Source: a virus
Lineage: Duplodnaviria > Heunggongvirae > Uroviricota > Caudoviricetes
Reading direction: 5' to 3' (one strand)
IMG/VR virus record: IMGVR_UViG_2541047834_000001
DNA: 37,741 nt
Positions 96 to 37,724 of the stretch are shown here, in pieces. The position numbers and the translations under genes are program-made. The first letter of the stretch is position 1. The number at the start of each line of letters is the position of its first letter. Under the pieces are notes generated by a model. The model ran no database searches. It saw nothing but the letters and a program-made list of their open reading frames with translations, and was not told where the DNA came from.

Positions 96-150
96 TGTAT
101 TCATTTCTATTCACTCTACACCATATTTTTCGGCGGTACAGGTGACGGTA

Positions 151-165
151 TTACCTTAAAGGTAT
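151..165. promoter_or_regulatory. Operator-like palindrome TTACC-TTAAA-GGTAt upstream of int (imperfect)
   Basis: Member of the ATTACC-N5-GGTAAT family, one mismatch. Confidence 0.35.
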
Positions 166-207
166 ACTCTCATACCGTCATGAAAATGGTTTCTATACGG
201 GTGAATT

Positions 208-1458
208 GTGCTTACCGATACAAAATTAAAGAACCTCAAGCCACAGGACAAACTGTACAAAGTTTCCGATCGTGACGGGCTGTATGTAGCTGTGCTTACG
301 TCAGGTACGGTCTCGTTTCGCTATGACTACCGTATCAACGGTCGCCGCGAAACACTGGTAATCGGGCAGTATGGGCGTGACGGTATCAGCCTGGCAGAAG
401 CGCGAGAAGAACTGATTGCTGCAAAGAAGCTGCTTAAAGCAGGCCAGTCACCGGCTGCGGCTAAACGTGACGGTATCAAAAAGATTCGTGGTGCCGAGAC
501 GTTTGCGGTACATACCGACAGTTATATGAAACACGTCATCCTGGCTGACAGTACCCGCGCAATGAAACAGGCGGTGATCGACCGTGACATACTTCCGACT
601 CTTGGCAATAAAATGATGGCTGAAATTACCACATCGATGGTTCGTGATTTGTGTGACCGGATTGTCGAACGCGGTGGCCGGGCAACAGCAGTGCAGGCCA
701 GGGAGATCATCAGTAGCGTATACCGTCACGCCAATGACCGTGGTCATGGTTTGTTTAATCCTGCGGCTGACATTAAACCTTCGTCTATCGCCATATTTAA
801 ACCACGAGAGCGAACACTGACACCAGAAGAAATTGGCCTGTTCTTCCGCACGCTGGATGCCATTGGTGCTATGGGCACTATGAAAATGGCTTTAAAACTG
901 GTGCTTATCACTATGGTTCGTAAGGGCGAATTCACCAATGCAACGTGGGATGAAATAGATTTTAAAAAATGGACATGGACAATTCCTCCAGACCGCATGA
1001 AGGGAAGCCGGGCGCACGTTATTTACCTGCCTAAACAGGCACAGGATATATTGGTCGGGTTGCAGATGTGCGCTGGTGGAAGTGAATATCTGGTTCCTGG
1101 TCGTTACAATTTCCGGAAGCCATTATCTAATGCCGCGCTAAACTCTCTGATCGACAGAACGGTGAAAATAATAAATGAAGATGGTGAGCATATTCAGGAC
1201 TTCACTGTACATGATATGCGCCGTACAGCCAGTACGTTGTTGCATGAGGCTGGTTATCCTTCAGACTGGATTGAAAAGGCTCTGGCACATGAGCAGAAAG
1301 GTGTGCGCGCCGTATATAACAAAGCGGAATACGCCAGACAGCGCGCCTACATGTTGCAGCAGTGGGCCGATATGATTGATTCATGGATTGACGGGGAGCA
1401 TACGGATCTGATTCCGTTCTCCCCGTCGAAGTTTGAGAAGTGGATGGCGGGGGAATAA
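208..1458 (+). CDS. int: Tyrosine site-specific integrase (P4-type phage integrase family)
   Basis: 416-aa ORF next to attL; N-terminal arm-binding-like region (YVAV..FRYDYRINGRRE) and C-terminal catalytic region with HDMRRT (HxxR) and RAVYNKAEY (Tyr nucleophile region). Confidence 0.9.
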   Translation: MLTDTKLKNLKPQDKLYKVSDRDGLYVAVLTSGTVSFRYDYRINGRRETLVIGQYGRDGISLAEAREELIAAKKLLKAGQSPAAAKRDGIKKIRGAETFAVHTDSYMKHVILADSTRAMKQAVIDRDILPTLGNKMMAEITTSMVRDLCDRIVERGGRATAVQAREIISSVYRHANDRGHGLFNPAADIKPSSIAIFKPRERTLTPEEIGLFFRTLDAIGAMGTMKMALKLVLITMVRKGEFTNATWDEIDFKKWTWTIPPDRMKGSRAHVIYLPKQAQDILVGLQMCAGGSEYLVPGRYNFRKPLSNAALNSLIDRTVKIINEDGEHIQDFTVHDMRRTASTLLHEAGYPSDWIEKALAHEQKGVRAVYNKAEYARQRAYMLQQWADMIDSWIDGEHTDLIPFSPSKFEKWMAGE

Positions 1459-1461
1459 CGT

Positions 1462-1656
1462 TTAATAGTTCTGCTGATTTTCTTCCATCTCTGCTTCTGC
1501 TGCCAGTGATTCAATTTTGTTTTCGAATATTGCTGACAGTGTTGCAAATTCAGCATCAGTGACAGCGGGAATTGGAACAAACCTGATCCCGCTGTGTGCA
1601 AGCATGTTTGCAGTTTCAAGGCATTTTCTTAAATCTGCTGGTGATGCCCTGTTCAT
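1462..1656 (-). CDS. Hypothetical small protein (64 aa), last gene of leftward early operon
   Basis: ATG at 1656 overlaps the TGA stop of the upstream methyltransferase gene (ATGA coupling); convergent with int. Confidence 0.45.
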   Translation of the reverse strand: MNRASPADLRKCLETANMLAHSGIRFVPIPAVTDAEFATLSAIFENKIESLAAEAEMEENQQNY

Positions 1657-2303
1657 GCAGCACGCTCCCGTCCCTGGTTGTCTGTTGGTGACAGCGGAGC
1701 ATTGCTGAATGCATTTGTTAATCCGCCAATATCCAACGCGTATCCAGGGTGTAGTTGCACTGCCGGGTCTTCGCACTGATTACCCCAAACATCGAAGCCA
1801 TGAGACGTCTGGCGGGCGAACAGTTCAATGCGAGAAACATCGCCTAATAATTGCACAAGTTTTTCACGAACGATATCTGGCTTTCTTGAATGCTCAAGCC
1901 GCGGTGCGGTAAATGACTGAACGATCCCTGCATTAATGCGCGTAGGTAGTTTTCCCTTTACCGCAAACAGGCAATCTTCACTATTGGCGCGAGTCATGTG
2001 TCCCATACCCATAACAAGTTTATCTGGTTGTCGACTACCACATTTTATCCACGTGAAGCCCTTCATCGTCATCAGACGGAATCCCCAGGCTTCAACAACT
2101 TTTAGTGCTTCGAGTGGTTGTGTTGGCACCCACCACATGGCCAACAGACAGTTTTCATCGGCCAAATCCCACACAGGAAGGCGGCAGATATCCAGCACAC
2201 TCATAACCGGATATTTAAAACCGGCACCGCGATTACCATCTGCGGCTTTGTCCCGGTATACCCAGGGTGGATCTGCATAGATTAGTGTGTATTTCTTAGT
2301 CAT
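1653..2303 (-). CDS. DNA N6-adenine methyltransferase (DPPW motif; MT-A70 / phage Dam-like)
   Basis: N-terminus MTKKYTLIYADPPWVY carries the DPPW catalytic motif; ATG at 2303 preceded by GGGGTGG RBS; ORF extends to a GTG at 2315. Confidence 0.75.
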   Translation of the reverse strand: MTKKYTLIYADPPWVYRDKAADGNRGAGFKYPVMSVLDICRLPVWDLADENCLLAMWWVPTQPLEALKVVEAWGFRLMTMKGFTWIKCGSRQPDKLVMGMGHMTRANSEDCLFAVKGKLPTRINAGIVQSFTAPRLEHSRKPDIVREKLVQLLGDVSRIELFARQTSHGFDVWGNQCEDPAVQLHPGYALDIGGLTNAFSNAPLSPTDNQGRERAA

Positions 2304-2595
2304 AAACCACCCCACAACATCCTATGCCGCTATAGTCGCCACGGCGAAGGCCGTTACCTTTTGTGATACATTGGTCCCTGCGAACCGCGATCCTTGCACG
2401 CTCAACATCACCAGAAGCAACATCCATACACTGAAGCCAAAGGTAGGCGGCAATTCGGAATTGCCCTTTTTTCTCTCTTTCAATCGCGCGTTTTTCGATC
2501 TCTATCGCCGCAGGAGTAACGGCGACAATCTTTGACGGACTGCGCATTGAAACCTTATTCATGTGATATTTTTCAAGTCGGCTTAACTTTCTCAC
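2296..2595 (-). CDS. Hypothetical protein (99 aa)
   Basis: ORF in leftward operon; GTG start with GAGGG upstream; 8-nt overlap with methyltransferase start. Confidence 0.4.
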   Translation of the reverse strand: MRKLSRLEKYHMNKVSMRSPSKIVAVTPAAIEIEKRAIEREKKGQFRIAAYLWLQCMDVASGDVERARIAVRRDQCITKGNGLRRGDYSGIGCCGVVYD

Positions 2596-2704
2596 TTAAT
2601 CCAACCCTCTCTGAAAATTAATGCCAGCAGATAAAGCCATGCTGAAACAGAGGCCAGGAATAAGTACCATCCTGACCATTTGCTCCAGTGTCTTAGCAGC
2701 ACAC

Positions 2705-2953
2705 TCATGCAGCGTTGCTCACAGGACGATATACACGTTGCTGAACAGGAGGTTTTTTACCCTGGAACTCTGCCGGGCTTGCTGCCTGACGTTCATCAAG
2801 CCAACGCTCAACTTCGTCACGGTTCCATGCGCAGCGTTTGTCGGTGATATACCAGCGTTTAGGAAATTCCCCTGCGCGCTCCATACGGTCGATAGTGCTC
2901 CATGACAGTGGCACCACCGCCAGGAGTTCCTTCTTACCTAATGCACCTTTCAT
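2705..2953 (-). CDS. AlpA-family phage regulatory protein / excisionase (MerR-like HTH)
   Basis: 82 aa; LLAVVPLSWSTIDRMERAGEFPKRWYITDKRCAWNRDEVERWLDER matches the AlpA/Xis pattern. Confidence 0.8.
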   Translation of the reverse strand: MKGALGKKELLAVVPLSWSTIDRMERAGEFPKRWYITDKRCAWNRDEVERWLDERQAASPAEFQGKKPPVQQRVYRPVSNAA

Positions 2954-3002
2954 AAATACCTCTCTTGGTTGCAGTGCGGCGCGCGTGGCGCCGCGGTGGT
3001 GG

Positions 3003-3884
3003 TTACATAGATGTTTCGTTTAATTCTTCCCGACGAACGCTGTAAACGTCGGTGGCTTTTGCCAGCAGTTCGTCATCATCTGAAAGTTTTTGTGCAATGT
3101 ATTTGTAAGCCTTATCCAGTTCGGAGACAGTGCTGTAATTCATCGCTGCGCTGGTAAAGGCCATCAGCATTTCTTCTGGATCACGGCTATCCGCTTTACG
3201 AGTTTGCTCATCAGGCTTTTTCACTGGTTTAGCGTTGATCAGACTGTTCATTCCCGCAGCAGTAGTTGTTTGCGGAGTAATGTCTCGCTCAACGCGCGGT
3301 GCCGTTTCCTGTAATTCGTCAGGGGTATAAACACCGAGAAGCACATCAGGAGCGTGCAGGCGAGCCCATCGTTTCGTGCAAAGATAGGCAAGCTGCTGGC
3401 GCGGATCCTGTTCCCACAATGGAGAGTTACGCACTCCGGCTTGCGCCATACTGATGGTAAGCTCACGGGGTTCTGCTTCTCCTTTAAGAACTGCTGACAC
3501 AGTTACCGTCAGATTCGGTGATTTATCTGTTTTGCCGTTAACATTCGACCAGTCACCGCTCCAGCGATAATTCAGGCGTGTCGCTAGCAGGCTGGAAGAG
3601 GATACGACCGCGTTTACCAACTGTGCTTCGTAGCCTAACTTTCCGTTTACCACATGCGTTTTCTGCGCCACGGCGAAAGGGTTCATTCCCCACTGTGCCG
3701 CCTGCATGGTCACCGCCAGACAATCGGCAGGTTTGCCTTCAAGATGTTCCGGTACAGTCGCTTTGCTTTGTGACATCAACTCCGCGAAACGCACCAGTTG
3801 ATTCATGCCCTCCGGGCTGAAGATTGCCGCAGCAGTACCTACAGTTGCGCCTGGTTGTGATGTGATTGCGATATCATTGCTCAT
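3003..3884 (-). CDS. Single-strand annealing recombinase, lambda Bet (Red-beta)-like
   Basis: 293 aa; AAQWGMNPF...NGKLGYEAQLV and ERDITP resemble lambda Bet; start overlaps upstream exonuclease stop (ATGA). Confidence 0.7.
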   Translation of the reverse strand: MSNDIAITSQPGATVGTAAAIFSPEGMNQLVRFAELMSQSKATVPEHLEGKPADCLAVTMQAAQWGMNPFAVAQKTHVVNGKLGYEAQLVNAVVSSSSLLATRLNYRWSGDWSNVNGKTDKSPNLTVTVSAVLKGEAEPRELTISMAQAGVRNSPLWEQDPRQQLAYLCTKRWARLHAPDVLLGVYTPDELQETAPRVERDITPQTTTAAGMNSLINAKPVKKPDEQTRKADSRDPEEMLMAFTSAAMNYSTVSELDKAYKYIAQKLSDDDELLAKATDVYSVRREELNETSM

Positions 3885-4702
3885 ACGTACATATCCTGTT
3901 TACGTGCCCAGTCAGGGCGTTTAATAATTTCCACTCCGCCCCACTCATCGTTGATGCGGCATTCGTGATAGGTATTCAGATCCCGGCGGAACAGATCGTG
4001 ACCGGCATCGACATCCGGCGCATCCAGCTCGAACACGCGTACCGGATACCGACCACAATCAATGCTTTCGCTCACGGCAAGAAAGAAAAAACCATGCGGC
4101 TGACCAGTAACCCTCATTGCGCCTTCGCGGTACATTGCGTCCTGCACGTGGTAGCGGAATTCCTCGATGTGGCGTGCAAAACGGTCCATATCTGCAACCT
4201 TTTTCACGTCGACGATCACGTTGTGCTCGTTCAGCCATTTGTCTGGACGAATGCGGCACAACTCACCAGTCTCTTCATCGTTCCAGTACATTGATGCTTC
4301 GCAGTAACCAGGTGCTTCCAGCATCCAGCGTGCCGCCGGGTGAGCCATTGCGCTATCACGCATCAGCTCCAGTTTCCGCCACTGCTCGGCATCAAGTACC
4401 GTAATCCCCATATCCGCTACATCACGAAGAAATGCCTCTTCGTCAGCTTTACCTTGTTTTGTCCGACGATCGAATTTCGGTGAAACGATGAAGCGTTTGT
4501 CAAACTCTCCAGGTTCCAGAAGCAGACAGTGCAGAGCAGTACCCATGTCCAGTGCAGACTTCTTCTCTTCGTCTTCCGGAGCAGCCTTCACCCATTTCAG
4601 AAGGGCAGGGTTCTTAGCCACCATATCTAGCTGCGACTTACTCACGCCGTCACCGGCGTGGTAGTCCTCGTTGCTGATATCGAAATAAATTCCCGGATTC
4701 AT
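3881..4702 (-). CDS. Putative recombination exonuclease (partner of the Bet-like annealase)
   Basis: 273-aa ORF translationally coupled immediately upstream of the bet-like gene; exo-annealase pairing is the standard arrangement; nuclease fold not verified. Confidence 0.6.
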   Translation of the reverse strand: MNPGIYFDISNEDYHAGDGVSKSQLDMVAKNPALLKWVKAAPEDEEKKSALDMGTALHCLLLEPGEFDKRFIVSPKFDRRTKQGKADEEAFLRDVADMGITVLDAEQWRKLELMRDSAMAHPAARWMLEAPGYCEASMYWNDEETGELCRIRPDKWLNEHNVIVDVKKVADMDRFARHIEEFRYHVQDAMYREGAMRVTGQPHGFFFLAVSESIDCGRYPVRVFELDAPDVDAGHDLFRRDLNTYHECRINDEWGGVEIIKRPDWARKQDMYV

Positions 4703-4998
4703 GCCGCGTCCCTCTGCCCATCAATCTGATCAGCCAGATCCCAGCGGGCGATAATTGCCATTGCCTCGCGCCGGTAGGCATCCATTAGTTCTTCGAACTC
4801 AGGGCTGTCTTTAGCGGCCTCCAGTACTTCCTGGCGAACGCCTTTAACTGTTACAACGTCGAAAGTTGATGCCAGTTGATGAAGCCGGATACTCTCAATC
4901 AGTTCAACTTGTCGGTCATATAGCTGTTCTGACAGGCTGTAGTCCTTGTCGAATGCCAGCATGATTTTTTGAAGATTTTTCTGCTGATTAACGTTCAT
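4699..4998 (-). CDS. Hypothetical early protein (about 99 aa)
   Basis: ATG at 4998 preceded by GGGAGGG RBS; stop overlaps exonuclease start (ATGA). Confidence 0.55.
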   Translation of the reverse strand: MNVNQQKNLQKIMLAFDKDYSLSEQLYDRQVELIESIRLHQLASTFDVVTVKGVRQEVLEAAKDSPEFEELMDAYRREAMAIIARWDLADQIDGQRDAA

Positions 4999-5001
4999 TA
5001 T

Positions 5002-5153
5002 CAGCCCTCCCATATCTCGTTATCGTTGGCCACATCGCGAGCTTCTTTGCTGACGAAAGCCCACTTAATGCCTTCCTGTAAGGTGCGGAACTTCCAGCTC
5101 ATGAATCCGCATGCAGTAACGCAGTACCAACCGTTGATGATTTTCCACTGCAT
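5002..5153 (-). CDS. Hypothetical small Cys/Trp-containing protein (50 aa), first gene of leftward operon
   Basis: MQWKIINGWYCVTACGFMSWKF...; GAGG RBS 8 nt upstream; not in supplied ORF track (under size cutoff). Confidence 0.35.
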
Positions 5154-5172
5154 AACTTGTTACCTCGGTCTG

Positions 5173-5187
5173 TTACCGTTGAGGTAA
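5173..5187. promoter_or_regulatory. Operator-like palindrome TTACC-GTTGA-GGTAA (leftward early promoter region)
   Basis: Perfect half-sites; adjacent extra TTACC at 5160. Confidence 0.5.
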
Positions 5188-5234
5188 TAATTATGCGTAT
5201 TTGGTTTGGTGTCAATAGATATGAGTTAAAAAAA

Positions 5235-5249
5235 TTACCCTTAAGGTAA
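5235..5249. promoter_or_regulatory. Operator-like palindrome ATTACC-CTTAA-GGTAAT
   Basis: Perfect 17-bp palindrome frame. Confidence 0.5.
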
Positions 5250-5261
5250 TTGCGCAGGCAA

Positions 5262-5286
5262 TAAAAAAGCCGCCAGAAGGCGGCTT
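5262..5286 (-). terminator. Rho-independent terminator downstream of the repressor gene
   Basis: GCCGCC-TTCT-GGCGGC hairpin followed by TTTTTT on the minus strand. Confidence 0.6.
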
Positions 5287-5306
5287 ACTTACTGAAAAAT
5301 ATGATT

Positions 5307-5891
5307 TTATTGTTTGTTTTTTTCGTTCTGGTTGATGACAAATTCAATGTAACTTTCGATCTTTGCTTTCTCGGTTTCGGGTAACAATGCGTAGCGCGAG
5401 CGGTCATAGTTGATGGTCGCAGGGTCGTGCGGGTGAATCAGTAATTCATAGCCGTGACGCCCGAATGCGGATGCAACATTCTCCAGGGTGGAAATGGAAA
5501 CGCTGACCTCATTGTTTAACAGGCGGCTGATTGTCACCTGGGCGACGCCGGATGCGCGGTGAAGTTTTCCCTGTGTTGAAAGGTCGCGGCTTTCGCTCAT
5601 CCAGCGTTCCAGGTTGTGAGCCGCCAGCTGACCAATGTCGCTTGGGCCGACAGGCTGAAAACCTTCCTGAGAAAGCGAGCGATCGATATCAAGCCAGTTA
5701 CGGGGTTTATTGGCGGCAGCTTCAATTTTTCGCGCAACCTGGTCGCCGATAACCTTCTTGCCAAGAGCCCAGCGGTTTACCAGATTTGCCTGAGTTCCAA
5801 GTTTTTCTGCCATCCGCGTCTGAACACCATTGAATTCACGGTCGATCAAGTCGTTGAGATTTTGCCTGCGGACGTCCTGGATACTTTTCAT
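5307..5891 (-). CDS. Putative immunity repressor with two HTH (XRE-like) domains
   Basis: 194 aa; two helix-turn-helix-like segments (TRMAEKLGTQANLVNRWALGKK and ASGVAQVTISRLLNNEVSVSISTLENVA); divergent from a Cro-like gene across an operator-rich intergenic region. Confidence 0.65.
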   Translation of the reverse strand: MKSIQDVRRQNLNDLIDREFNGVQTRMAEKLGTQANLVNRWALGKKVIGDQVARKIEAAANKPRNWLDIDRSLSQEGFQPVGPSDIGQLAAHNLERWMSESRDLSTQGKLHRASGVAQVTISRLLNNEVSVSISTLENVASAFGRHGYELLIHPHDPATINYDRSRYALLPETEKAKIESYIEFVINQNEKNKQ

Positions 5892-5946
5892 TTTCTGGAA
5901 AATCGCCTCATATATGAATCAGTAGATGATTCAATTTAAAGCAATA

Positions 5947-5999
5947 TTACCCAACAGGTAAATGCACCCCATAGGTAACTATCCTTGATTTTTGTTACC
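5947..5999. promoter_or_regulatory. Divergent promoter/operator region between repressor and cro-like gene
   Basis: TTACC-CAACA-GGTAA (5947-5961) plus inverted repeat CCCATAGGTAAC / GTTACCTTATGGG (5969-6006). Confidence 0.5.
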
Positions 6000-6045
6000 T
6001 TATGGGTGAATATTTATTATCTGAAATAAATATCAGGCAATAGCT

Positions 6046-6276
6046 ATGAGCGATAACGGACATTTCGATTTCAAAAAGCACTGGCTTGCACTTACTCCGG
6101 ATGAGCGTGAAGCCTTCGCACAGGAAGCCGGAACGACGAGTCATTATATCCAGACTCACTTAACAGGTAAGCGCAAAATGCCAGGTAAAGTATTGATGAA
6201 TGGGCTTTTTAAAGCCTGTAAAACAAGACAATGGTTGCGCTCAAAAGCAGAACTGGCATACTTCTTCTACTCATGA
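6046..6276 (+). CDS. Cro / YdaS-like HTH regulator
   Basis: 76 aa; TSHYIQTHLTGKRKMPGKVL resembles the Cro/YdaS family; divergent to the repressor. Confidence 0.65.
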   Translation: MSDNGHFDFKKHWLALTPDEREAFAQEAGTTSHYIQTHLTGKRKMPGKVLMNGLFKACKTRQWLRSKAELAYFFYS

Positions 6277-6298
6277 TATCCAGCTACAACCCTCTGTA

Positions 6299-6320
6299 GA
6301 CCGCCACCCGGCGGTCTTTT
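6299..6320 (+). terminator. Rho-independent terminator (tR1-like) after cro-like gene
   Basis: GACCGCC-ACCC-GGCGGTC hairpin followed by TTTT. Confidence 0.65.
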
Positions 6321-6331
6321 CATATCTATTC

Positions 6332-6346
6332 GTACCTCAAAGGTAA
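6332..6346. promoter_or_regulatory. Operator-like palindrome gTACC-TCAAA-GGTAA
   Basis: One mismatch; just after cro terminator. Confidence 0.4.
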
Positions 6347-6426
6347 TAAAAAACCAAATGTGGTTGATCTTTTTTTTGTGTCAGCACAAAATGACCGTAA
6401 TCCCAATACCAATAACAGGGCTTACC

Positions 6427-6627
6427 ATGGAAATCATTACACGTATTGATGCCGCAAAGCGCGGACTTAAACGCTACTACACCGGAAAAACATGTAAGCA
6501 CGGACATGACAGTGAACGCTGGGTTTACAACGGACACTGTGTTGAGTGCACCATGGAATCAAACCGTCGTATCAGGGCAGAGATTAAGCAGATCATGATT
6601 AATTCCTCCCCACAACATTCAAGCTGA
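6427..6627 (+). CDS. Small zinc-finger-like protein (CxxH...CxxC)
   Basis: MEIITRIDAAKRGLKRYYTGKTCKHGHDSERWVYNGHCVEC...; ATG at 6427; in-frame ORF extends upstream to 6358. Confidence 0.5.
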   Translation: MEIITRIDAAKRGLKRYYTGKTCKHGHDSERWVYNGHCVECTMESNRRIRAEIKQIMINSSPQHSS

Positions 6628-6642
6628 TAGCGGAGATTAATC

Positions 6643-8240: not shown

Positions 8241-8245
8241 TACCA

Positions 8246-8270
8246 GCGCGATAGCGCATTTTTTTACGCC
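8246..8270 (+). terminator. Weak terminator-like hairpin after P-like gene
   Basis: GCGC-GATA-GCGC followed by ATTTTTTTA; short stem. Confidence 0.35.
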
Positions 8271-8277
8271 CACGTAA

Positions 8278-8292
8278 TTACCTAGTGGGTAA
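8278..8292. promoter_or_regulatory. Operator-like palindrome ATTACC-TAGTG-GGTAAT
   Basis: Perfect half-sites; downstream of P-like gene. Confidence 0.5.
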
Positions 8293-8339
8293 TAAAATGT
8301 TCTAACGTCTATTGATTTCATGTCTTATGTGGTTTTTAA

Positions 8340-8354
8340 TTACCTAAGGGGTAA
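8340..8354. promoter_or_regulatory. Operator-like palindrome ATTACC-TAAGG-GGTAA
   Basis: Directly upstream of ATG 8358; preceded by TATGTGGTTTTTAA. Confidence 0.5.
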
Positions 8355-8357
8355 ATC

Positions 8358-8702: not shown

Positions 8703-8763
8703 ATCGACGATCTTTTTAGTTATCAATGTAATCAATAAGTTATGTGGATAAGCGAGGGTAAAG

Positions 8764-10845: not shown

Positions 10846-10846
10846 T

Positions 10847-10996: not shown

Positions 10997-10999
10997 CAC

Positions 11000-11938: not shown

Positions 11939-11941
11939 TTG

Positions 11942-12831: not shown

Positions 12832-12839
12832 CATGTCAC
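12828..12839. promoter_or_regulatory. Perfect 12-bp palindrome GTGACATGTCAC (copy 1)
   Basis: Overlaps stop codon of zinc-ribbon gene; terminator 42 nt downstream. Confidence 0.45.
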
Positions 12840-12880
12840 GAGTAGATTATGCATGATGAATTTGATGTGTTTTGAATACT

Positions 12881-25370: not shown

Positions 25371-27883
25371 TGCCAGTCGTACCAACAGTATCCGGACGCC
25401 AGGTTGAGAGCCGTGGAGTTCAGTCAGCAGGCTTGCAGACGTTTTCTCAGCCAGGTATTGGTGATGCTTTTGTTCGGGCAGGGACAGAGGCAATTGATGT
25501 TTTGGGGCAGGCAAAACAGCGTGCCAATATCGCTCTGGCTCAGGAGGCATCTCTTAACCTCAGTCAGATAAGCAGTGATCTGCTGAATAACCCTGAAACA
25601 GGTTTGCTTAACCTGAAAGGGAAAAATGCTATTGGAAAAGGCCATGAGTATACGCAGCAGTTTGATGCTCAGGTCGAACAACTGGCTATGTCGCTGCCGG
25701 ATGAACAGGCTCGTAATGCTTTCATGCAGCAGGCGCAGCAGCAGCGCATTCAGTTCACTACGCAGGCCGGGCGGCACGAGATAGGGCAAATTAATGCCTA
25801 CGAAGAAGGTCAGTTTCAGGCGACGCTGCTGAACAATGGTAAAAATGCCGCAGCATTGTATGGCGACAATGCCGCATACGTATTGGCTAATAAGCAAACT
25901 TTCCAGCAAATTGAGGAGTACGGTGCTGCACATGGCTGGAGCGACGAGCAAATACAGGCCAAGAAAATCGAGTTTAAAGAGAAGGTTGCTGATGCAGCAT
26001 TGTCCCAGTGGTCGGCAAACAATGCGACCGCATTCATCCAAAGTAATGGCGAGTTAAGTGATACTGCTGCTGGAGCTCGCCGTGCTGTAACAGATAGTGG
26101 CTCTTCCGAGCGTGTCCGTGGCATACGCAACAATAACCCCGGAAATCTCGAATACAGCAAAACTAATCCGTGGGTAGGCCAGACCGGTGATGATGGTAGA
26201 TTTGCTAAATTCGAAACACCTGAACACGGGATTCGTGCATTAGGGCGGAACCTGATGTCGTATCAGCGGCAGGGTATTGATACCGTCAGCGAGATAATTA
26301 ATCGCTGGGCACCGCCTACTGATAAAAATGACACTATGTCGTATATCAAAGCAGTGTGCGAACAACTTGGCGTTTCTGCTGATGAGCCTCTCGATGCATC
26401 AAATCCTGATACCCTGAAGGCGCTTTGTGCAGCCATTATCCATCATGAGAACGGTAGCCAGCCATACAGTGATCAGAAGTTAACTGCTGGTGTCAGTGCA
26501 GCACTTGGTTTATCAACAATTCCAACCAACACCAAACGCTATACCGGTAATGCAGCATTCGATGCGGCATCTCCTGAGGCTCAGGCAAGTTTTATGCGGC
26601 AGGCGGATCAACTGCGTCGGCAGCAGCAGGCTGAATATAAAACGATGATTGACAGCCAGGTTCGCGATGCGACGGCTGCGTATATGCGTGGCGTTGAATT
26701 TCCTAACCCACCTGGTGAGGCTGATTTTATTGCAGCTTATGGAGTCAGAGAAGGAAACCTGCGATATACCGAGTTTAAGAATACGCAGATCGCCGGACAG
26801 TATATAGGCTCTTTCCGCAACATGCCGACAAGCAGCATTACAGCATATGTTGAGCAATTACGCCCGGATACTGGTGAGACAGGGGAGGGTTATGCGGCTC
26901 GCGCAGCTCTTTATGACAACGTTGTTTCGGCTGCAAATCAGGTGATAAAGCAGCGGCAGTCTGATCCTGTGCAGTTCTCTCTTGCCTCTGGACAGGCAAA
27001 GCCTATCGACATGAGCAATAAGGATAACTTTGGACAGAGCGTTGCCTTGCGTGCCGCTCAGGTCAGTGACCTTGCTAAGTCATATGGCACTCCACTGACG
27101 TTCTTTTCCAAAGACGAGGCCAATCAGATCGGTGTTTTTTTTCGTGATGCTCCAGTTTCCCAACAGGCAGCATATCTCGATACCATCAGGCAGAGCACTG
27201 GTGGTGGGCAGGTGTATATGTCAGCACTACAGCAGATCAGTGCCAACGCTCCATCTGCTGCCGTTGCCGGGATACTGATGGATAAGCCTGGTGGTATTTT
27301 GGCAGAAAAAAACTGGTTTAATCCGGATGTTTCCGTGTCTCCTGAAACCGCTGCGCAGACAATTCTTGCTGGCGCGGCGGCTCGTAAAGGTACTGATGAT
27401 GCGAAAGGTATTCCGATGCCTAAAGATGCTGATCTTCGCCTTGAGTTTTCTGACATGGTGAAGGATGCATTTGCTGGTGATGCTCAGGGGGCATCAATGG
27501 CATACGAGATCGCAAAGGACTATTACGCTGGTGTGATGGCGAAAAAAGGCGTGATATCAGGCGAAATTGACACTGATATCTGGAAACAGGCTGTTAACGT
27601 AGCTACAGGTGGCGTGCATGACTATAACGGAATGGGGAATGTCCTTTTGCCGTGGGGAATGTCTGCAGAGCAATTCGATAAGCAGGTTAATCAGGCTTGG
27701 AATGAACAAGTTGTCGGCTCCGGGATAAAAACACCGCCTGGTCAGTATGGTTTGCAAAGTTACGGCGATAGTCAGTACCTGGTGAAACTTGGTACTGGTT
27801 ATCTGCTGAAAGATGATGGTTCTCCCGTTGTTCTTAATCTGACACAGAAGCGTCAGAGATTCTCCGGAGATATTCCGCAATGA
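25370..27883 (+). CDS. Internal virion / ejection protein (gp15 position) with a conserved domain (GIRNNNPGNLEY...)
   Basis: About 837 aa from ATG at 25370 (TAATG overlap); ORF track extends to 25295. Confidence 0.65.
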   Translation: MPVVPTVSGRQVESRGVQSAGLQTFSQPGIGDAFVRAGTEAIDVLGQAKQRANIALAQEASLNLSQISSDLLNNPETGLLNLKGKNAIGKGHEYTQQFDAQVEQLAMSLPDEQARNAFMQQAQQQRIQFTTQAGRHEIGQINAYEEGQFQATLLNNGKNAAALYGDNAAYVLANKQTFQQIEEYGAAHGWSDEQIQAKKIEFKEKVADAALSQWSANNATAFIQSNGELSDTAAGARRAVTDSGSSERVRGIRNNNPGNLEYSKTNPWVGQTGDDGRFAKFETPEHGIRALGRNLMSYQRQGIDTVSEIINRWAPPTDKNDTMSYIKAVCEQLGVSADEPLDASNPDTLKALCAAIIHHENGSQPYSDQKLTAGVSAALGLSTIPTNTKRYTGNAAFDAASPEAQASFMRQADQLRRQQQAEYKTMIDSQVRDATAAYMRGVEFPNPPGEADFIAAYGVREGNLRYTEFKNTQIAGQYIGSFRNMPTSSITAYVEQLRPDTGETGEGYAARAALYDNVVSAANQVIKQRQSDPVQFSLASGQAKPIDMSNKDNFGQSVALRAAQVSDLAKSYGTPLTFFSKDEANQIGVFFRDAPVSQQAAYLDTIRQSTGGGQVYMSALQQISANAPSAAVAGILMDKPGGILAEKNWFNPDVSVSPETAAQTILAGAAARKGTDDAKGIPMPKDADLRLEFSDMVKDAFAGDAQGASMAYEIAKDYYAGVMAKKGVISGEIDTDIWKQAVNVATGGVHDYNGMGNVLLPWGMSAEQFDKQVNQAWNEQVVGSGIKTPPGQYGLQSYGDSQYLVKLGTGYLLKDDGSPVVLNLTQKRQRFSGDIPQ

Positions 27884-29682: not shown

Positions 29683-29687
29683 ATTAA

Positions 29688-32162: not shown

Positions 32163-32171
32163 GGAAGTGTT

Positions 32172-32345
32172 GTGTTTTTAATTATTTTGAGTGTGATAAT
32201 TTCTGGTGGATTGTTATTTATTGACCGCTACAAATATTTTCTTAACCCTCAGACTCAAGCTATTTGCTGGTTCATCTTTGTTGTGCAGGGAGTAGTTCTT
32301 GTTGCAAGCCTTATTGAGGGGAGGCCTCTTATTTTTACTGGGTAA
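32172..32345 (+). CDS. Small hydrophobic membrane protein (57 aa), AT-rich moron
   Basis: GTG start 4 nt after AAGGAAG; VFLIILSVIISGGLLFIDRYKYFLNPQTQAICWFIFVVQGVVLVASLIEGRPLIFTG; about 30% GC; not in ORF track (size cutoff). Confidence 0.4.
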   Translation: MFLIILSVIISGGLLFIDRYKYFLNPQTQAICWFIFVVQGVVLVASLIEGRPLIFTG

Positions 32346-32357
32346 ATAGGTGACTAC

Positions 32358-32654
32358 ATGCAAGCTATAGGATTCATTGTTTATATCGTCGTTGGTCTTT
32401 TTCAGTTGGCAGCAATTATGGCTGGGCTTGAATCATGGTGGGGATTGCACTGGATAATTGCAGCCCCCATTGCTTTCATCGTGAGCTATATTCCATTTGT
32501 TGGAGCGATTGTTGGTATGGTTGGCGCTGTGGATGTATGGCGGTGGGAGTGGTGGCAGGCTGGCCTTCTCTTCTTTGGTGGGATCATCTTTGCTATTGTC
32601 TGCGGTGGAATGTCATCATTTTTCGAATGGCTATCATTCAGAAAAGGGACGTGA
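32358..32654 (+). CDS. Trp-rich integral membrane protein (98 aa, about 3 TM)
   Basis: Hydrophobic segments; stop embedded in GTGACATGTCAC palindrome; followed by terminator. Confidence 0.55.
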   Translation: MQAIGFIVYIVVGLFQLAAIMAGLESWWGLHWIIAAPIAFIVSYIPFVGAIVGMVGAVDVWRWEWWQAGLLFFGGIIFAIVCGGMSSFFEWLSFRKGT

Positions 32655-32662
32655 CATGTCAC
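32651..32662. promoter_or_regulatory. Perfect 12-bp palindrome GTGACATGTCAC (copy 3)
   Basis: Overlaps stop codon of membrane-protein gene; terminator hairpin starts 2 nt downstream. Confidence 0.45.
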
Positions 32663-32663
32663 A

Positions 32664-32688
32664 GGCCGCTTTCGCGGCCTTTAAATTT
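32664..32688 (+). terminator. Terminator hairpin GGCCGC-TTTC-GCGGCC + TTTAAATTT
   Basis: Perfect 6-bp GC stem with T-rich tail; between convergent genes. Confidence 0.55.
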
Positions 32689-32962
32689 ACCGGGTTTGTT
32701 TTCGTAATTGTTCGGCACAATAGTCGAGATGTGTTTGCAGATCCTGCATAGACATCTGTGAGCTGGTGACATAGTTAATCAGTGCAGTCAGTTCGGCAAG
32801 TGGGCCATCGACATTAAATCCATCCTTATCGAGATCCCGGAGTAATTTCATCAAGTGCGATCCCTCCACCAGTGACCTGACGCCTCCCGGCGTGTGAATC
32901 CTTTCGGTAAATCCGTCTTCCAGTGGATAGTGATACTGCTGCATCTTATCTTCTCCATGCAA
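32687..32962 (-). CDS. Hypothetical soluble protein (91 aa), reverse-oriented moron with own promoter region
   Basis: Only minus-strand gene in the structural module; upstream intergenic 32963-33139 contains an ATTACC-N5-GGTAAT site. Confidence 0.55.
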   Translation of the reverse strand: MHGEDKMQQYHYPLEDGFTERIHTPGGVRSLVEGSHLMKLLRDLDKDGFNVDGPLAELTALINYVTSSQMSMQDLQTHLDYCAEQLRKQTR

Positions 32963-33020
32963 TAACTGTATATTTATACAGTATCAAATAATTTGTTTGC
33001 TATCCAGCACGTTTTGCAAA

Positions 33021-33035
33021 TTACCCGAAAGGTAA
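33021..33035. promoter_or_regulatory. Operator-like palindrome ATTACC-CGAAA-GGTAAT between moron gene and tail fibre gene
   Basis: Perfect half-sites; followed at 33067 by TATGTGGTTTTTAA. Confidence 0.5.
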
Positions 33036-33139
33036 TATCTATTCGTATTCACAGTCTTTCTATCCATATGTGGTTTTTAAGGTAATAGAATAACCAGATA
33101 TGCGGCGCAACGGGTGCTGCGACTATCTGGAGATTTAAC

Positions 33140-35329
33140 ATGACGGTCTCAACCGAAGTTGACCACAACGAATACACCGGTAACGGCGTTACGACATCAT
33201 TTCCGTATACCTTCCGTATTTTCAAAAAAACCGACCTGGTTGTTCAGGTGTCTGACCTGAACGGGAACGTAACAGAATTGGTTCTGGATACCGGTTATAA
33301 GGTAACTGGAGCGGGCACTTATAGTGGCGGTGAAGTGGTTCTCCCGTCGCCGCTTGCTGCTGGATGGCGAATTACGATAGAGCGTGTGCTTGATGTGGTG
33401 CAGGAGACTGATCTTCGCAATCAGGGAAAATTTTTCCCCGAAGTTCATGAGGATGCATTTGACTACCTGACGATGCTGATCCAGCGATGTTTCGGGTGGT
33501 TCAGACGTGCATTGATGAAACCATCTTTGCTTGCAAAATATTACGATGCAAAGCAAAACAGAATTTCTAACCTTGCAGATCCATCACTTGAGCAGGACGC
33601 TGTAAATAATCGCTCAATGCGTAATTATGTCGATGCTGCAATCGCCGGGGTTGTTGGTGGTTTTGGTTGGTTTATACCGTCAGGAAGCGGGGCAAGACAA
33701 CGAACATTTCAAAGCAAAATGAGGGATATAATTTCTCCTTGTGATTACGAAGATAATATTTTTATGATTAAGGAGTTGATATCCAAAGGCAAAAATGCCG
33801 CTGTTTTTAACTCATATTATACTTTTGTTATTACTGTTGGCGAATGGGGTGATTACCCTACACTCAAAGATGCAATCATTGCAGCCCAGTCAATGAGACC
33901 TATGTGGGATGGTGGTAATGCTTTCTGCGAAATAAGAATTAAGACCGGGCATATTATCAACTATCAAATTGAATTCAGTTCAGGTGTTGATTTGTCTTGG
34001 ATTAAAATAACATCAGAAGACTCAGTGGTTTTCTCTGACACTCGTTTGTTTACTAAAATCGTTAGAACGTATTACGAATACAAGTATTTATTTTACATTT
34101 GCGATGCAGCAAAAAGTCCTGTATTTGCTATTCAGATCGAAGAAAATAGAGATGATAGCGATGTTTGTGCATTTATTGTAACTCAAAAAGCTGAACTTAA
34201 TTTCTATCCGTATTCAGGTGCTCGAAAGTTCTACGTTGGAATTCATGGTAGTTTTGGTGCAAAAATTAGTGCATATCATACCGGATGTGCTCCTGATGAG
34301 GAAAGTGTTGCTGCATATATGCCAGAAGGGTATTACGTATGTGATTTTTCTTATAGCAGATACTCTTCCCTGCAACTGGTAAATAATGTCAAGGCATCAA
34401 TGCCTGTAAGCAAGTTTGAACGGTGCACAGAGAGTACGGTTGCGTCAGTTAATTGTATTTATAATGTTAAAGCAGATTTTCAGGGGTCAAGTGCAAGCTA
34501 TTGTTATATAGGATGGAATGTAAGAGATGGTTCAAATGTTAATATACGCGACCATAAAACTATACATTGCTCATATCGTGGATTAACCTGCATTCATACA
34601 GCATATGTTGATGCAAGACGACATGACGTTGAAGAAAGTGATGCAGAAACAAGTGGTAAAGTCCTTGAACCAAATATTGAAAAAGGTTTTTATGGATGTG
34701 CACTTGGTGTGCGTATTGATGGTGCGGGTTGCGTTGATGTTGCTGGTAATGATATGCGCAATTGTGGAACAGCCGTTAATGCAGACACTGGTGCTGTTAT
34801 TTCAGGAAAGGCTGTAGATATCTCAGGGGCTGAGCTGGGATTTGATTGCCATGCAGGAGCATCTGTTAATTTTCCAAGGCTATGGGGTACAGATATAAAA
34901 AAATTAATGCACCTCCAAGATGGTGTAAGGTTTAACTCTAATATTTGTCATGTATTTGGTGCAAATCCCACAAAAGATATTAGATGGATTGATGTAGAGA
35001 GATCTGAAGCTTCTTTTATGAATGCAACGCTGGATGCAGATTCAGGATTTATTGCCGACTGTGGTAGTAGGATAACCATTGAAGGAAGTAAAGTTAAAAA
35101 CCAAACAATAAGAAGTTTTTTTGGATCATATGTGGCTATAAATAATACTGTTGCTGACAGAACTTATTCAGATATAGCCGATGTTCCGCAGTTGACTATT
35201 AGTGGAGGATCTTTTATTTCTGCTACAGGATATTCTAATTCTGACTCCAGCCCTCTGAGGTTGAGCACAACACGAAATACACTTGGCGTTGGAGGAGCTA
35301 TATTTTCAACCAATGGGGAAGTTTCATGA
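33140..35329 (+). CDS. Tail fibre / tailspike protein (conserved N-terminal adaptor, variable AT-rich distal domain)
   Basis: 729 aa; N-terminus (NEYTGNGVTTSFPYTF...NRISNLADPSLEQDAVNNRSMRNY) resembles podovirus tail-fibre anchors; distal portion about 35% GC. Confidence 0.75.
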   Translation: MTVSTEVDHNEYTGNGVTTSFPYTFRIFKKTDLVVQVSDLNGNVTELVLDTGYKVTGAGTYSGGEVVLPSPLAAGWRITIERVLDVVQETDLRNQGKFFPEVHEDAFDYLTMLIQRCFGWFRRALMKPSLLAKYYDAKQNRISNLADPSLEQDAVNNRSMRNYVDAAIAGVVGGFGWFIPSGSGARQRTFQSKMRDIISPCDYEDNIFMIKELISKGKNAAVFNSYYTFVITVGEWGDYPTLKDAIIAAQSMRPMWDGGNAFCEIRIKTGHIINYQIEFSSGVDLSWIKITSEDSVVFSDTRLFTKIVRTYYEYKYLFYICDAAKSPVFAIQIEENRDDSDVCAFIVTQKAELNFYPYSGARKFYVGIHGSFGAKISAYHTGCAPDEESVAAYMPEGYYVCDFSYSRYSSLQLVNNVKASMPVSKFERCTESTVASVNCIYNVKADFQGSSASYCYIGWNVRDGSNVNIRDHKTIHCSYRGLTCIHTAYVDARRHDVEESDAETSGKVLEPNIEKGFYGCALGVRIDGAGCVDVAGNDMRNCGTAVNADTGAVISGKAVDISGAELGFDCHAGASVNFPRLWGTDIKKLMHLQDGVRFNSNICHVFGANPTKDIRWIDVERSEASFMNATLDADSGFIADCGSRITIEGSKVKNQTIRSFFGSYVAINNTVADRTYSDIADVPQLTISGGSFISATGYSNSDSSPLRLSTTRNTLGVGGAIFSTNGEVS

Positions 35330-35622
35330 TTAAGAGCATTGATGTCACTCCATTTCTTCACTCGCTTTGCGCTTTTGCGGCTCAGGTACTGGTTGGTATT
35401 TTTACCGGAAACTGGGCTTACGGTGCGATAGCCGGTTGTACGTTCTTCATTGCGCGTGAACACACCCAGGCAGAATATCGCTGGATAGAAAAGTTTGGGA
35501 AAGGGAAACGTATCAACATGCCGTGGTGGGGAGGTTTTGATCCACGCGTGTGGGATGTGGGAAGTCTGTTGGATTTTGCTGTTCCTGTTGTTTTTTGTTT
35601 TTGTGTTTATTTCTCTATTTGA
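35326..35622 (+). CDS. Small membrane protein (98 aa) coupled to tail fibre gene
   Basis: ATGA overlap with tail fibre stop; two hydrophobic segments. Confidence 0.5.
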   Translation: MIKSIDVTPFLHSLCAFAAQVLVGIFTGNWAYGAIAGCTFFIAREHTQAEYRWIEKFGKGKRINMPWWGGFDPRVWDVGSLLDFAVPVVFCFCVYFSI

Positions 35623-35627
35623 CTGCT

Positions 35628-35650
35628 ACCGCGCCATTAAATGGTGCGGT
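35628..35650. promoter_or_regulatory. 23-bp near-palindrome ACCGCGCCATTAAATGGTGCGGT upstream of lysis cassette
   Basis: Inverted repeat with one G/T mismatch in intergenic 35623-35824. Confidence 0.4.
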
Positions 35651-35752
35651 ATTCAACCTGCTCTTCACTGTTTGTTTCTTCAGAGTCATGTAAAAGGTGA
35701 GCTTTATTCTCGGCATGAAAAACAGGGAATTGACGATGTTAAAGTAACAAAA

Positions 35753-35766
35753 AACCATAAATGGTT
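35753..35766. promoter_or_regulatory. Palindrome AACCAT-AA-ATGGTT overlapping a -10-like ATAAAT
   Basis: Shares CCAT(T)AAATGG core with 35628-35650; TTGACG 17 bp upstream. Confidence 0.4.
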
Positions 35767-35824
35767 TATTATGCGTAATGCTTTACTGTTCAGGAGGTTG
35801 TTATGCATATAAACGGTGGAAAAC

Positions 35825-36229
35825 ATGTCAGCTCAACTAACCAGTGAAACTTTAAATCAGTGGCTTAGCATGAGTTCTCTGGCGGCGGTGATAGCAGGAG
35901 TTCCTCCTGAGGTTGCTTTGGGTGCTTTGGCTGGAGCGGTAATTTTTGTTACCTCTGCAGTAGAGTACCCCATCCGTCGCCGGGTGCTCCTGTCGATGCT
36001 CAGCTTTCTTTGCGGCCTTCTCTTTTACAAACCAGCAGCATCAATTCTTATCGGCATAGCCAGCCTGATCCCTACCATCACGCAGGACTCTTTTGAAAAA
36101 GGGATTGTTTTCTCTGCAGGCGCATTCGTGTCAGCAATTGTCGCTGTGCGTATTGGTATATGGCTCTATCACCGTTCCGATAATCCACGCGAGTTAATTC
36201 CGGGGAGAAAAGACGATGGTAACGCATGA
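35825..36229 (+). CDS. Membrane protein, possible holin/antiholin
   Basis: Multiple TM segments; directly upstream of and overlapping the next membrane gene and endolysin; start may be GTG 35816. Confidence 0.45.
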   Translation: MSAQLTSETLNQWLSMSSLAAVIAGVPPEVALGALAGAVIFVTSAVEYPIRRRVLLSMLSFLCGLLFYKPAASILIGIASLIPTITQDSFEKGIVFSAGAFVSAIVAVRIGIWLYHRSDNPRELIPGRKDDGNA

Positions 36230-36524
36230 GTTTTTTTTGCTTATCACCAATGCAGTTATTTGCACTGGCATAGCAATTCGCGTTGTCACATTCCGGCGTA
36301 ACGGCTCTCAACACCGAAGGTGGGGAGGATGGCTTGCTTATTTCCTGATTGTTGCTGCGGCCAGTATTCCTGTTCGTGTCGCCTATGCAATCTGGTTACG
36401 TACGCCAATGGCTGTGGATTTATCTGAGGTCATTATCAACGCTGTCATGCTGGCTGCGGTTATTAAAACGCGCGGTAACGTCGTTCAAATTTTTAAAGTA
36501 TCGAGGTCTAAACATGGAGATTAA
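36216..36524 (+). CDS. Putative holin (3 TM, charged C-terminus)
   Basis: 102 aa with three hydrophobic segments and basic tail, immediately upstream of the endolysin gene. Confidence 0.5.
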
Positions 36525-37143
36525 ACAATTCCAGCGAGCTGCTGGTATCAGCGAGGCACTGGCCGCACGCTGGTTCTCGCATATAACTTCTGCGATGAAA
36601 GAGTTTGGTATCAGCAAAGCAGAAGATCAGGCAATGTTTATTGCTCAAGTCGGGCATGAGTCTGGGAGCTTCACCAGGTTGCAGGAGAATTTCAACTACA
36701 GTGTCAGCGGACTGGCTAACTTCGTTCGGGCTGGGCGTCTCACTCAGGGGCAGGCTAATGCACTGGGGCGCCGTGCTGGTGAAGCACCATTGCCACTTGA
36801 GCGCCAGCGCGCGATCGCAAATCTGGTATACAGCAAACGCATGGGGAACAATGCCCCTGGTGATGGCTGGAATTACCGAGGGCGCGGACTTATCCAGATT
36901 ACCGGTTTGAATAACTATCGTGATTGCGGAAACGGTCTGAAGGTTGACCTGCTGGAGAGCCCTGAACTGCTGGCGCAGGACGAATATGCGGCTCGTAGCG
37001 CGGCGTGGTTCTTCGTCAGCAAAGGCTGCATGAAGTATACCGGCGATATTGTACGTGTAACTCTGATTATCAATGGTGGCAGAAACGGTATCGACGACCG
37101 GCGTGCGCGGTACATCACAGCAAGTAAGGTACTGGCGGTATGA
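36514..37143 (+). CDS. Endolysin, glycoside hydrolase family 19 (chitinase-like lysozyme)
   Basis: [12 protein letters not shown]...[16 protein letters not shown] motifs typical of GH19 endolysins; ATG at 36514. Confidence 0.8.
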
Positions 37144-37637
37144 TCTGGGCATTTGTAAAAGCATACCGTAAACAGTTACTTATCGTGGCGATGCTTGCTG
37201 TTCTGGTCATATCAGGAGTTGTTGCCTGGAATGTGCACGGCATCCGTCAGTACGATGCCGGGTATGCGCAGGCGAAGGAAGATCAGAAACAGGCTGATGA
37301 TAAGTTAAGGTCACAGCGTGAGCAGGAGAAAACACAAATTGAACGTGAAGCACAATCCCGTATCGATGCGGCGCGTGCTGATGCTGAGTATGCTAATTCC
37401 GCTGCTGACAGCATGCGCGCCGAGCTTGACAAAACCAGGCGGCTCGCCGAACACTATACCGGATCTTTCCCCCCTGGCACGCCAGCCAGCAAGGTCATCG
37501 GTGTGCTCGCCGACATGCTTGAAGAAAGCAACCGAGTTTACAACGCAACAGCAACTGAGGCTGAAAAGTATCGTATCGCAGGGGAATTCTGCGAGCAGCA
37601 ATACGATTCACTGAAGAAGCAAAAATCGTGGCACTGA
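37140..37637 (+). CDS. Rz-like i-spanin
   Basis: N-terminal TM ([18 protein letters not shown]) followed by charged coiled-coil; ATGA-coupled to endolysin. Confidence 0.7.
37366..37614 (+). CDS. Rz1-like o-spanin lipoprotein embedded in the +1 frame of Rz
   Basis: [20 protein letters not shown]: signal peptide with lipobox LTAC; Pro-rich mature part; entirely inside the Rz ORF. Confidence 0.6.
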   Translation: MRRVLMLSMLIPLLTACAPSLTKPGGSPNTIPDLSPLARQPARSSVCSPTCLKKATEFTTQQQLRLKSIVSQGNSASSNTIH

Positions 37638-37724
37638 TTTCCGGTGACGGTATATAAAACGGTATGGTGAAAATCAGGTTACAGAAAGTTGTTACCAGTC
37701 AATTGGTTATGCATGCCGTAAATA

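Follow-up and report, generated by a model that had tools for sequence, protein, structure and literature searches.

How does the integrase of a prophage inserted at guaA recognise the arms of its own attachment site? The question arises from the viral record IMGVR_UViG_2541047834_000001 (Caudoviricetes), a stretch of 37,741 nucleotides analysed here at its full length and called the window hereafter. A sequence-only reading of this DNA had reported a cluster of a 9-mer, TGACGGTAT, near both ends, and took the copies for candidate arm-type sites of the integrase. Here, we identify the window as a complete phiV10/epsilon15-type (Uetakevirus) prophage that runs from attL to attR and is inserted at guaA, describe a conserved set of nine predicted sites distributed over both arms of the phage attachment site (attP) and the 5' part of int, and conclude that their consensus, TGACGGTAW, is very probably the arm-type recognition site of the prophage's P4-type integrase (Int), as the heterobivalent model would have it.

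An identical 17-mer, ATTGAGTGGGAATGATT, starts and ends the window as an exact match, so the earlier framing of the two ends as attL and attR is correct. This 17-mer is the att core that experiments have confirmed for the phages vB_EcoP_ZX5, phiV10 and epsilon15 (PMC9782041). Over its first 1.5 kb, the window shares 98–99% identity with phiV10-type phages and about 81% with epsilon15, SPN1S and Tyrion; the genus of all these phages is Uetakevirus. Reading along the plus strand, the end of guaA (1–15) is followed by a terminator (62–95), the array of predicted arm sites (131–180) and the start of int (208), which reads away from attL. Joining the right end of the window to its left end reconstructs attP, and the 9-mer motif then lies on both arms while sharing nothing with the core.

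The 9-mer matches exactly eight times over the two strands of the whole window, where 0.27 matches are expected, and none of 100 shuffles reached eight. Its starts are 143+, 172−, 378+, 468+, 720−, 26280−, 33674− and 37645+, which places five of the eight copies in the first 728 bp and one in the last 97 bp. The over-representation claimed earlier (five or six copies against about 0.3) therefore holds, while the count was too low. The copies at 143–151 (+), 172–180 (−) and 37645–37653 (+) and a partial ACGGTAT at 37659–37665 lie where they had been placed; a copy given as 368–376 is actually at 378–386 and one given as 467–475 at 468–476, and three exact copies, at 720–728 (−), 26280–26288 (−) and 33674–33682 (−), had been overlooked. 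Outside int genes, the motif is no denser than chance predicts.

Related genomes show the same concentration. Both phiV10 and epsilon15 have seven copies genome-wide, six of them in the attP-int region, and their single interior copies lie in different places. Fifty kilobases around guaA in E. coli K-12 contain no copy of the 9-mer, and 120 kb of sequence flanking 36 related loci contains seven background copies, just one of them outside an int gene; an estimated ~90 kb of these flanks is non-int DNA, in which ~0.7 copies would be expected. The other six occupy non-conserved positions within int (L010, +774; L015, +512; L018, +649; L029 and L031, +559; L038, +1028; L numbers are our labels for related loci and contigs), so that sporadic copies within int, the window's 720–728 included, are in unexplained excess beyond the conserved sites.

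We aligned eight contiguous attPs and one attL whose int genes are 74–98% identical at the nucleotide level. Across the eight free-phage attPs the motif is kept in both position and orientation, and the conserved set comprises nine predicted sites, five of them exact (143+, 172−, 378+, 468+ and 37645+) and four degenerate (131+, 157+, 512− and 37657+; Table 1). On the P arm, all eight attPs share GTGACGGTATATAAAACGGTA without change, an island set between divergent Rz ends and a following stretch of ~25 bp that varies freely, and the 12-bp tandem pair is also present in distant attPs, for instance as TGACGGTATagaTGACGGTAT in the viral contig L199. On the P' arm, Klebsiella phages read TGACGGTATaccTGACGGTATtaccaTTACGGTAT...GTACCGTCA, and three Klebsiella relatives (L007, L008 and L018) have an exact TGACGGTAT at the position of site a. 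The Klebsiella reading indicates that 131–139 and 157–165 are degenerate members of one array with 143–151 and the inverted 172–180. An unbiased repeat search of the phiV10 attP ranked the TGACGGTAT family first, and 183 CGGTA-anchored intergenic copies yield the 9-bp consensus T G A C G G T A W, the flanking positions carrying no information.

Two further observations concern these arms. At 147–155, GGTATTACC shows a back-to-back half-site arrangement similar to that of a palindrome at 506–517. The Rz/spanin 3' ends (~37570–37640) are of two unrelated-looking types among otherwise similar phages (alignment of L001–L009), and the two merge precisely at P-arm site 1, marking the attP edge as a mosaic boundary.

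Scanning species-representative genomes with Int recovered relatives from 90% down to 25% identity. Every relative of at least 47% Int identity sits directly past guaA, in Enterobacterales, Morganella, Edwardsiella, Oceanimonas, Tolumonas, Chromobacterium and Aquitalea as well as in Rhodocyclaceae, Cupriavidus, Aromatoleum, Rhizobacter, Caulobacter and Phenylobacterium, and each has three to six TGACGGTAW copies between the core and int. These follow a common layout, with a tandem direct pair, an inverted copy 30–40 bp further on and, ahead of the start codon, one or two more in direct orientation. Motif and layout together are found in about 30 guaA-inserted elements of gamma-, beta- and alpha-proteobacteria, at Int identities of 47–90%. 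Integrases of 38% identity or less, at other targets, have no TGACGGTAW copies and instead carry repeats of their own, such as CATGGGCACAA.

Table 1. Features of the window bearing on the predicted arm sites, in order of position
Feature	Coordinates	Strand	Remarks
attL core ATTGAGTGGGAATGATT	1..17	+	last guaA codons I-E-W-E-stop; identical to E. coli K-12 attB
Core-like inverted repeat TCATTCCTATTCA	38..50	+	85% complementary to core TGAGTGGGAATGA; from repeat search on phiV10 attP; conserved block
Rho-independent terminator, phage-borne	62..95	+	stem 62–85 plus T run; replaces native guaA terminator
Second core-like repeat copy TCATTTCTATTCA	101..113	+	from repeat search on phiV10 attP; conserved in attP alignment
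Predicted P'-arm site a, CGGCGGTAC	131..139	+	degenerate, 3 mismatches; 12-bp register with site b; CGGTA invariant
Predicted P'-arm site b, exact TGACGGTAT	143..151	+	126 bp past core; invariant in 16/16 aligned enterobacterial relatives
Predicted P'-arm site c, TAAAGGTAT	157..165	+	degenerate; GGTATA invariant; Klebsiella relatives read TTACGGTAT
Predicted P'-arm site d, inverted copy (ATACCGTCA on + strand)	172..180	-	inverted copy at equivalent place in nearly all guaA-targeting relatives
int, P4-type heterobivalent tyrosine integrase	208..1458	+	416 aa, GTG start; 98% identical to phiV10 int
Predicted in-gene site +170, exact TGACGGTAT	378..386	+	codons xxT GAC GGT ATC; longest invariant run in int, rank 1/1240
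Predicted in-gene site +260, exact TGACGGTAT	468..476	+	rank 7/1240; CGT/AGT/GCT GAC GGT ATY or AAA across relatives
Predicted in-gene site +304, inverted (ATACCGACA)	512..520	-	1 mismatch; rank 20/1240; within palindrome CGGTACATACCG (506–517)
Exact copy within int	720..728	-	non-conserved, rank 959/1240; relatives read TACCGTTAT, TACCGGTAC or TACCGACAT
AlpA-family gene, candidate excisionase (recombination directionality factor)	2705..2953	-	PF05930
Interior exact copy in virion gene	26280..26288	-	kept in phiV10 (98% identical locally); epsilon15 reads GATACGGTTAAC
Interior exact copy	33674..33682	-	no homologous region in phiV10 or epsilon15
Predicted P-arm site 1, exact TGACGGTAT	37645..37653	+	80 bp upstream of core; invariant in 8/8 free-phage attPs
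Predicted P-arm site 2, AAACGGTAT	37657..37665	+	2 mismatches; 12-bp register with site 1; AAAACGGTA invariant in 8 attPs
IHF-like element TCAATTGGTTA	37699..37709	+	between P-arm sites and core; relaxed consensus only; moderately conserved
attR core, second 17-bp copy	37725..37741	+	exact 17-mer match

The three sites within int offer a more demanding comparison of DNA and protein. We ranked 1240 nine-nucleotide windows along the 1248-nt gene by conservation in 21 int genes of 61–98% nucleotide identity, in which just 5% of third codon positions are invariant. The copies at 378 and 468 rank first and seventh, and this nucleotide conservation indicates that both are under DNA-level constraint, which justifies their inclusion among the arm sites by the sequence-only reading. 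The codon that precedes the GAC of the 378 site encodes R, C, I, P, A or S in different relatives and always keeps its final T. Beta- and alpha-proteobacterial homologues have SGL, AGI or EGL at this position, in unrelated codons and with no motif. The 512 position reads exactly ATACCGTCA in Morganella, and TTACCGTCA in Pantoea, Edwardsiella, Chromobacterium, Aquitalea and Rhodocyclaceae.

The in-gene copies belong to the gamma-proteobacterial branch, where the spacer between core and int is short (about 204–240 bp), and they are missing where a spacer of about 310 bp holds two extra direct copies. This reciprocal distribution looks like function-preserving turnover of sites, and the in-gene sites may have a role in recombination or in regulation. 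Two other features of int were seen alongside them. A perfect palindrome, CGGTA-CA-TACCG, spans 506–517 (codons V-H-T-D) and is invariant in the phiV10/epsilon15 group. The int genes of four Caulobacter and Phenylobacterium loci (L037, L040, L041 and L048) have an exact TGACGGTAT at +65 over a conserved DRDG[MI] motif, where enterobacterial genes read TGACGGGCT; this copy could be an additional in-gene site peculiar to that lineage, or else a coincidence of coding.

If the repeats are read by Int, changes in the motif might be matched by changes in the protein. Profile search divides Int into an N-terminal PF13356 Arm-DNA-bind_3 domain (residues 2–87, E=3.9e-20), a PF22022 central domain and a PF00589 catalytic domain. 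The relatives of the N-domain in the PDB, 3JU0 and 3JTZ, are both apo, and we know of no solved DNA complex of an Arm-DNA-bind_3 domain. Viral contigs were sampled with a distant Int as the lead query. Contigs of the ACGGTAT type (L137, L141, L148 and L199) have a tandem ACGGTAT pair in the P arm too, in phage DNA upstream of the core. Sister lineages with the same core and layout carry CATGGTAT in every copy on both arms (L145, L160, L164, L168, L176, L178 and L179); these and L147, L157, L189 and L220 are the members of an ATGGTAT class, and one element, L167, represents an AGGGTAT class. The classes differ in the base 5' of GGTAT, and no sequence upstream of int holds more than one of the three motifs.

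When 28 integrases are aligned, the classes are told apart by just two of ~400 columns. Position 40 holds D in 16/16 ACGG sequences and N both in 11/11 ATGG sequences and in the one AGGG sequence; position 47 holds R in the first class, Q in the second and Y in the third. The two residues belong to the segment FRYDYRxNGRRET of the arm-binding domain, and a single-sequence AlphaFold model of Int(1–111), of low confidence and used for its strand pattern alone, places them on two strands of a beta-hairpin. Arginine with a C:G pair and glutamine with a T:A pair fit common base-contact preferences. The covariation is suggestive support, not proof, that Int is the reader of the motif. Together with the placement of the sites on both arms, their conservation down to 47% Int identity and the presence of the arm-binding domain itself, it argues for the arm-type interpretation first advanced from the 9-mer cluster.

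Could the 9-mers instead serve another protein, the RNA, or nothing at all? We consider it unlikely that they are bound by the excisionase, an AlpA-family recombination directionality factor (RDF), or by another phage regulator that coevolves with Int. An AlpA-family gene is present in the window and in epsilon15 and adjoins int in the pAB3 island GIsul2, so that covariation with the motif could extend to it, and the int promoter of KplE1 is overlapped by several sites of its RDF TorI on the int-proximal arm (PMC2951348). The predicted sites, however, occupy both arms in a tandem-pair arrangement, the sole class-discriminating Int residues fall in its arm-binding domain, and a separate, lineage-specific repeat family beside the terminator (TCATTYCTATTCA) is available to another protein. 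It is highly improbable, in our view, that the inverted repeat at 143–180 works at the RNA level, as a stem-loop of the int 5' leader such as an RNase III site, rather than as protein-binding DNA. In favour of this reading, the two 9-mers match each other's complement perfectly, pairing is kept in 96% of cells over 16 relatives, and the epsilon15 record labels 26874–26912 'RNaseIII'. Against this, none of the nine pairs has changed on both sides, the 5' arm never varies and the 3' arm changes one-sidedly with five cells unpaired, and the predicted fold gains no significant stability over shuffles (z=-1.6), its minimum free energy structure leaving the full 9-bp stem unused. We rejected the hairpin for its lack of compensatory change among the 16 relatives and of significant stability; nor can it explain the P-arm, tandem and in-gene copies, or why both its arms match all other copies.

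That the whole cluster is a by-product of coding constraint (R-D-G-I in preferred codons) and chance strikes us as scarcely credible. The argument for it is that 378 and 468 both encode (R)DGI in common E. coli codons, that the conserved Int motif DRDG yields CGTGACGG a third time, and that three exact copies (720, 26280 and 33674) are not conserved. Four conserved copies are non-coding, however, and the codon upstream of the 378 site changes its residue six ways yet keeps its final T, within the most conserved 9-mer of the gene. Codon and rank evidence refute the coding explanation for the conserved copies, and it stands only for 720, 26280 and 33674. Those three were rejected as functional sites, since they are not conserved among relatives; the 720–728 copy is probably fortuitous, and the interior copies at 26280 and 33674 look like chance.

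Several points nevertheless weigh against Int as the reader of TGACGGTAW, or against parts of that interpretation. The strict consensus of integration host factor (IHF), WATCAANNNNTTR, has no match between the arm sites and the core, where relaxed matches only are found at 37699 and 37719(−). The motif classes are probably clades, which reduces the covariation at residues 40 and 47 to about two independent events, and the model that displays these residues has a mean confidence score (pLDDT) of 57. Arm sites inside a recombinase gene, 360–500 bp from the core, are to our knowledge unusual for intasomes. At three junctions (L150, L152 and L153) a P arm of the ACGGTAT type, with an epsilon15-like Rz end, is combined with a P' arm and Int of the ATGGTAT class. 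Here, int lies within ~1–5 kb of one end of contigs of about 38–44 kb, and the P' arm of L150 is that of GIsul2. These two facts are more simply explained by tandem insertions at guaA than by a hybrid attP, and suggest that each junction holds two different guaA-targeting elements in tandem. A literature search, which did not cover the epsilon15 genome paper, returned no experiment on binding or recombination in this group of phages; full-text search for the motif gave unrelated primers only, and no paper that combines guaA with arm-type sites. Finally, a sigma-70 scan of 1–600 detected no consensus promoter on which the autoregulation of int, considered below, would act.

With Int as the reader of the motif, the positions, conservation, covariation and domain content shown above suggest the following mechanism, in which binding, bridging and autoregulation are inferred. 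In the circular genome the window ends would join into one attP, in which the tandem pair about 70–80 bp to the left of the core would form the P arm, and three direct sites and one inverted site, 115–165 bp to the right of the core and just upstream of int, would form the P' arm; the three predicted sites at +170, +260 and, inverted, +304 lie within the int coding sequence. Int would hold the 9-mers through its N-terminal Arm-DNA-binding domain and the core, at the 3' end of guaA, through its C-terminal domains, and bending of the DNA, probably by IHF, together with this bridging would assemble an intasome for integration. With the AlpA-family excisionase, the same bridging would serve excision from attL and attR. 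The gene homologous to this candidate in epsilon15, gp33, is annotated 'excisionase and transcriptional regulator'.

The terminator between guaA and the array bears on how int may be expressed. It is nearly identical in the phage (aaccctctgtttttacagagggttttt) and directly past the guaA stop of the K-12 host (aaaaccctctgttactacagagggtttttt; minus strand near 30958 of L219), and as a phage-borne near-copy it would restore guaA termination upon integration and shield int from guaA read-through. Given a terminator at 62–95, int transcription must start at about 95–208, within the array. A conserved TATACT at 163–168, a possible −10 element, overlaps site c; no −35 element was found. The P' array occupies the interval from the terminator to the int start codon, and Int bound to it would therefore most likely repress its own transcription, as IntS of KplE1 does, and the in-gene sites would extend this autoregulation or the P' arm.

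The terminator is flanked by a second conserved repeat family, TCATTYCTATTCA, whose two copies (38–50 and 101–113) resemble an inverted core. These are candidates for extra core-type, accessory or excisionase sites. In the P arm of phiV10, the left half of the core recurs once more in inverted form, at about 37696–37712 in window coordinates, and by eye, repeats of CTATCG or CTGGCA type take the place of the TCATTYCTATTCA family in other lineages.

How much of this was already on record? The GenBank record of epsilon15 (NC_004775.2 / AY150271.2) contains four protein_bind features named 'integrase', each GTGACGGTAT, at 26651, 26873, 27108 and 27198, and epsilon15 shares the core, the guaA target, the terminator and int with the window. 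The four are positional homologues of window 37644–37653, 142–151, 377–386 and 467–476; the same four direct copies were thus already annotated there, independently, and the core finding is known. The epsilon15 record also marks the terminator and IHF sites equivalent to the place between the P arm and the core, and it labels the inverted copy as an RNaseIII site, not an Int site. P-arm site 2, the degenerate P' sites and the inverted in-gene copy at +304 are absent from it. The integrase sites of epsilon15 are annotations only, and the phiV10 record annotates none. The epsilon15 genome paper is reportedly that of Kropinski et al. (2007, Virology 369:234), whose view of the sites we know through the GenBank features alone.

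The predicted layout resembles a lambda-type attP (P1, P2, P'1–P'3) in its short repeat on both arms that is unrelated to the core, in the near-helical register of adjacent sites, in candidate IHF-like elements, matched under a relaxed consensus, between arm and core, and in an integrase with a separate N-terminal arm-binding domain. In contrast to lambda, this Arm-DNA-bind_3 (P4-type) domain is of another Pfam family, predicted P' sites reach about 500 bp from the core, upstream of and inside an int gene that reads away from it, and insertion takes place at the 3' end of a protein gene instead of an intergenic site. A regulatory parallel is KplE1 (CPS-53) with IntS and TorI, where target gene, attL and int follow each other in the same orientation as here and the arm sites likewise lie in the ~200-bp gap that has to hold the int promoter. 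In KplE1, the arm-type sites overlap the intS promoter, and negative autoregulation by Int has been shown experimentally (PMC2951348). KplE1 differs in its target, the tRNA gene argW, and in its arm motif, and the additional in-gene sites are a feature of the present system. GIsul2 and related guaA islands share the integrase family, the guaA 3' core GAGTGGGA, the P' layout and a nearby AlpA-family gene. The GIsul2 Int (pAB3) differs in belonging to the sister class (N40/Q47), with ATGGTA repeats and no in-gene copies at +170 and +260. The GIsul2 paper makes no mention of arm sites (PMC9376610).

These comparisons lead us to a more specific proposal, which we advance tentatively, holding it plausible but somewhat short of probable. 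The guaA-targeting integrase family would use one single 9-bp arm site, and residue 47 in the beta-hairpin of the Arm-DNA-bind_3 domain, together with residue 40, would read its fourth base (Arg-C, Gln-T, Tyr-G). In the enterobacterial branch, part of the P' arm or operator would have moved into int (+170, +260 and +304), with selection there acting more strongly on the DNA motif than on the amino acid it encodes, and Int bound at these sites would regulate its own gene or extend the intasome to about 500 bp. If true, this would give the Arm-DNA-bind_3 domain a simple, swappable recognition code.

Arm-type sites are an expected feature of the attP of a phage with a P4-type integrase and were already annotated in epsilon15. 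What is added, of moderate specialist interest, is an experimentally tractable map of nine predicted sites for phiV10-type phages, which are used for the detection and typing of O157 and convert serotype, and a two-residue hypothesis for site reading by the P4-type arm-binding domain. One arm-site layout appears to be common to guaA-targeting phages and islands over three proteobacterial classes, and the resistance island GIsul2 falls in a sister specificity class of this shared layout. Within int, the predicted sites would provide a clear example of recombinase-binding sequences embedded in, and constraining, the coding sequence of the recombinase itself.

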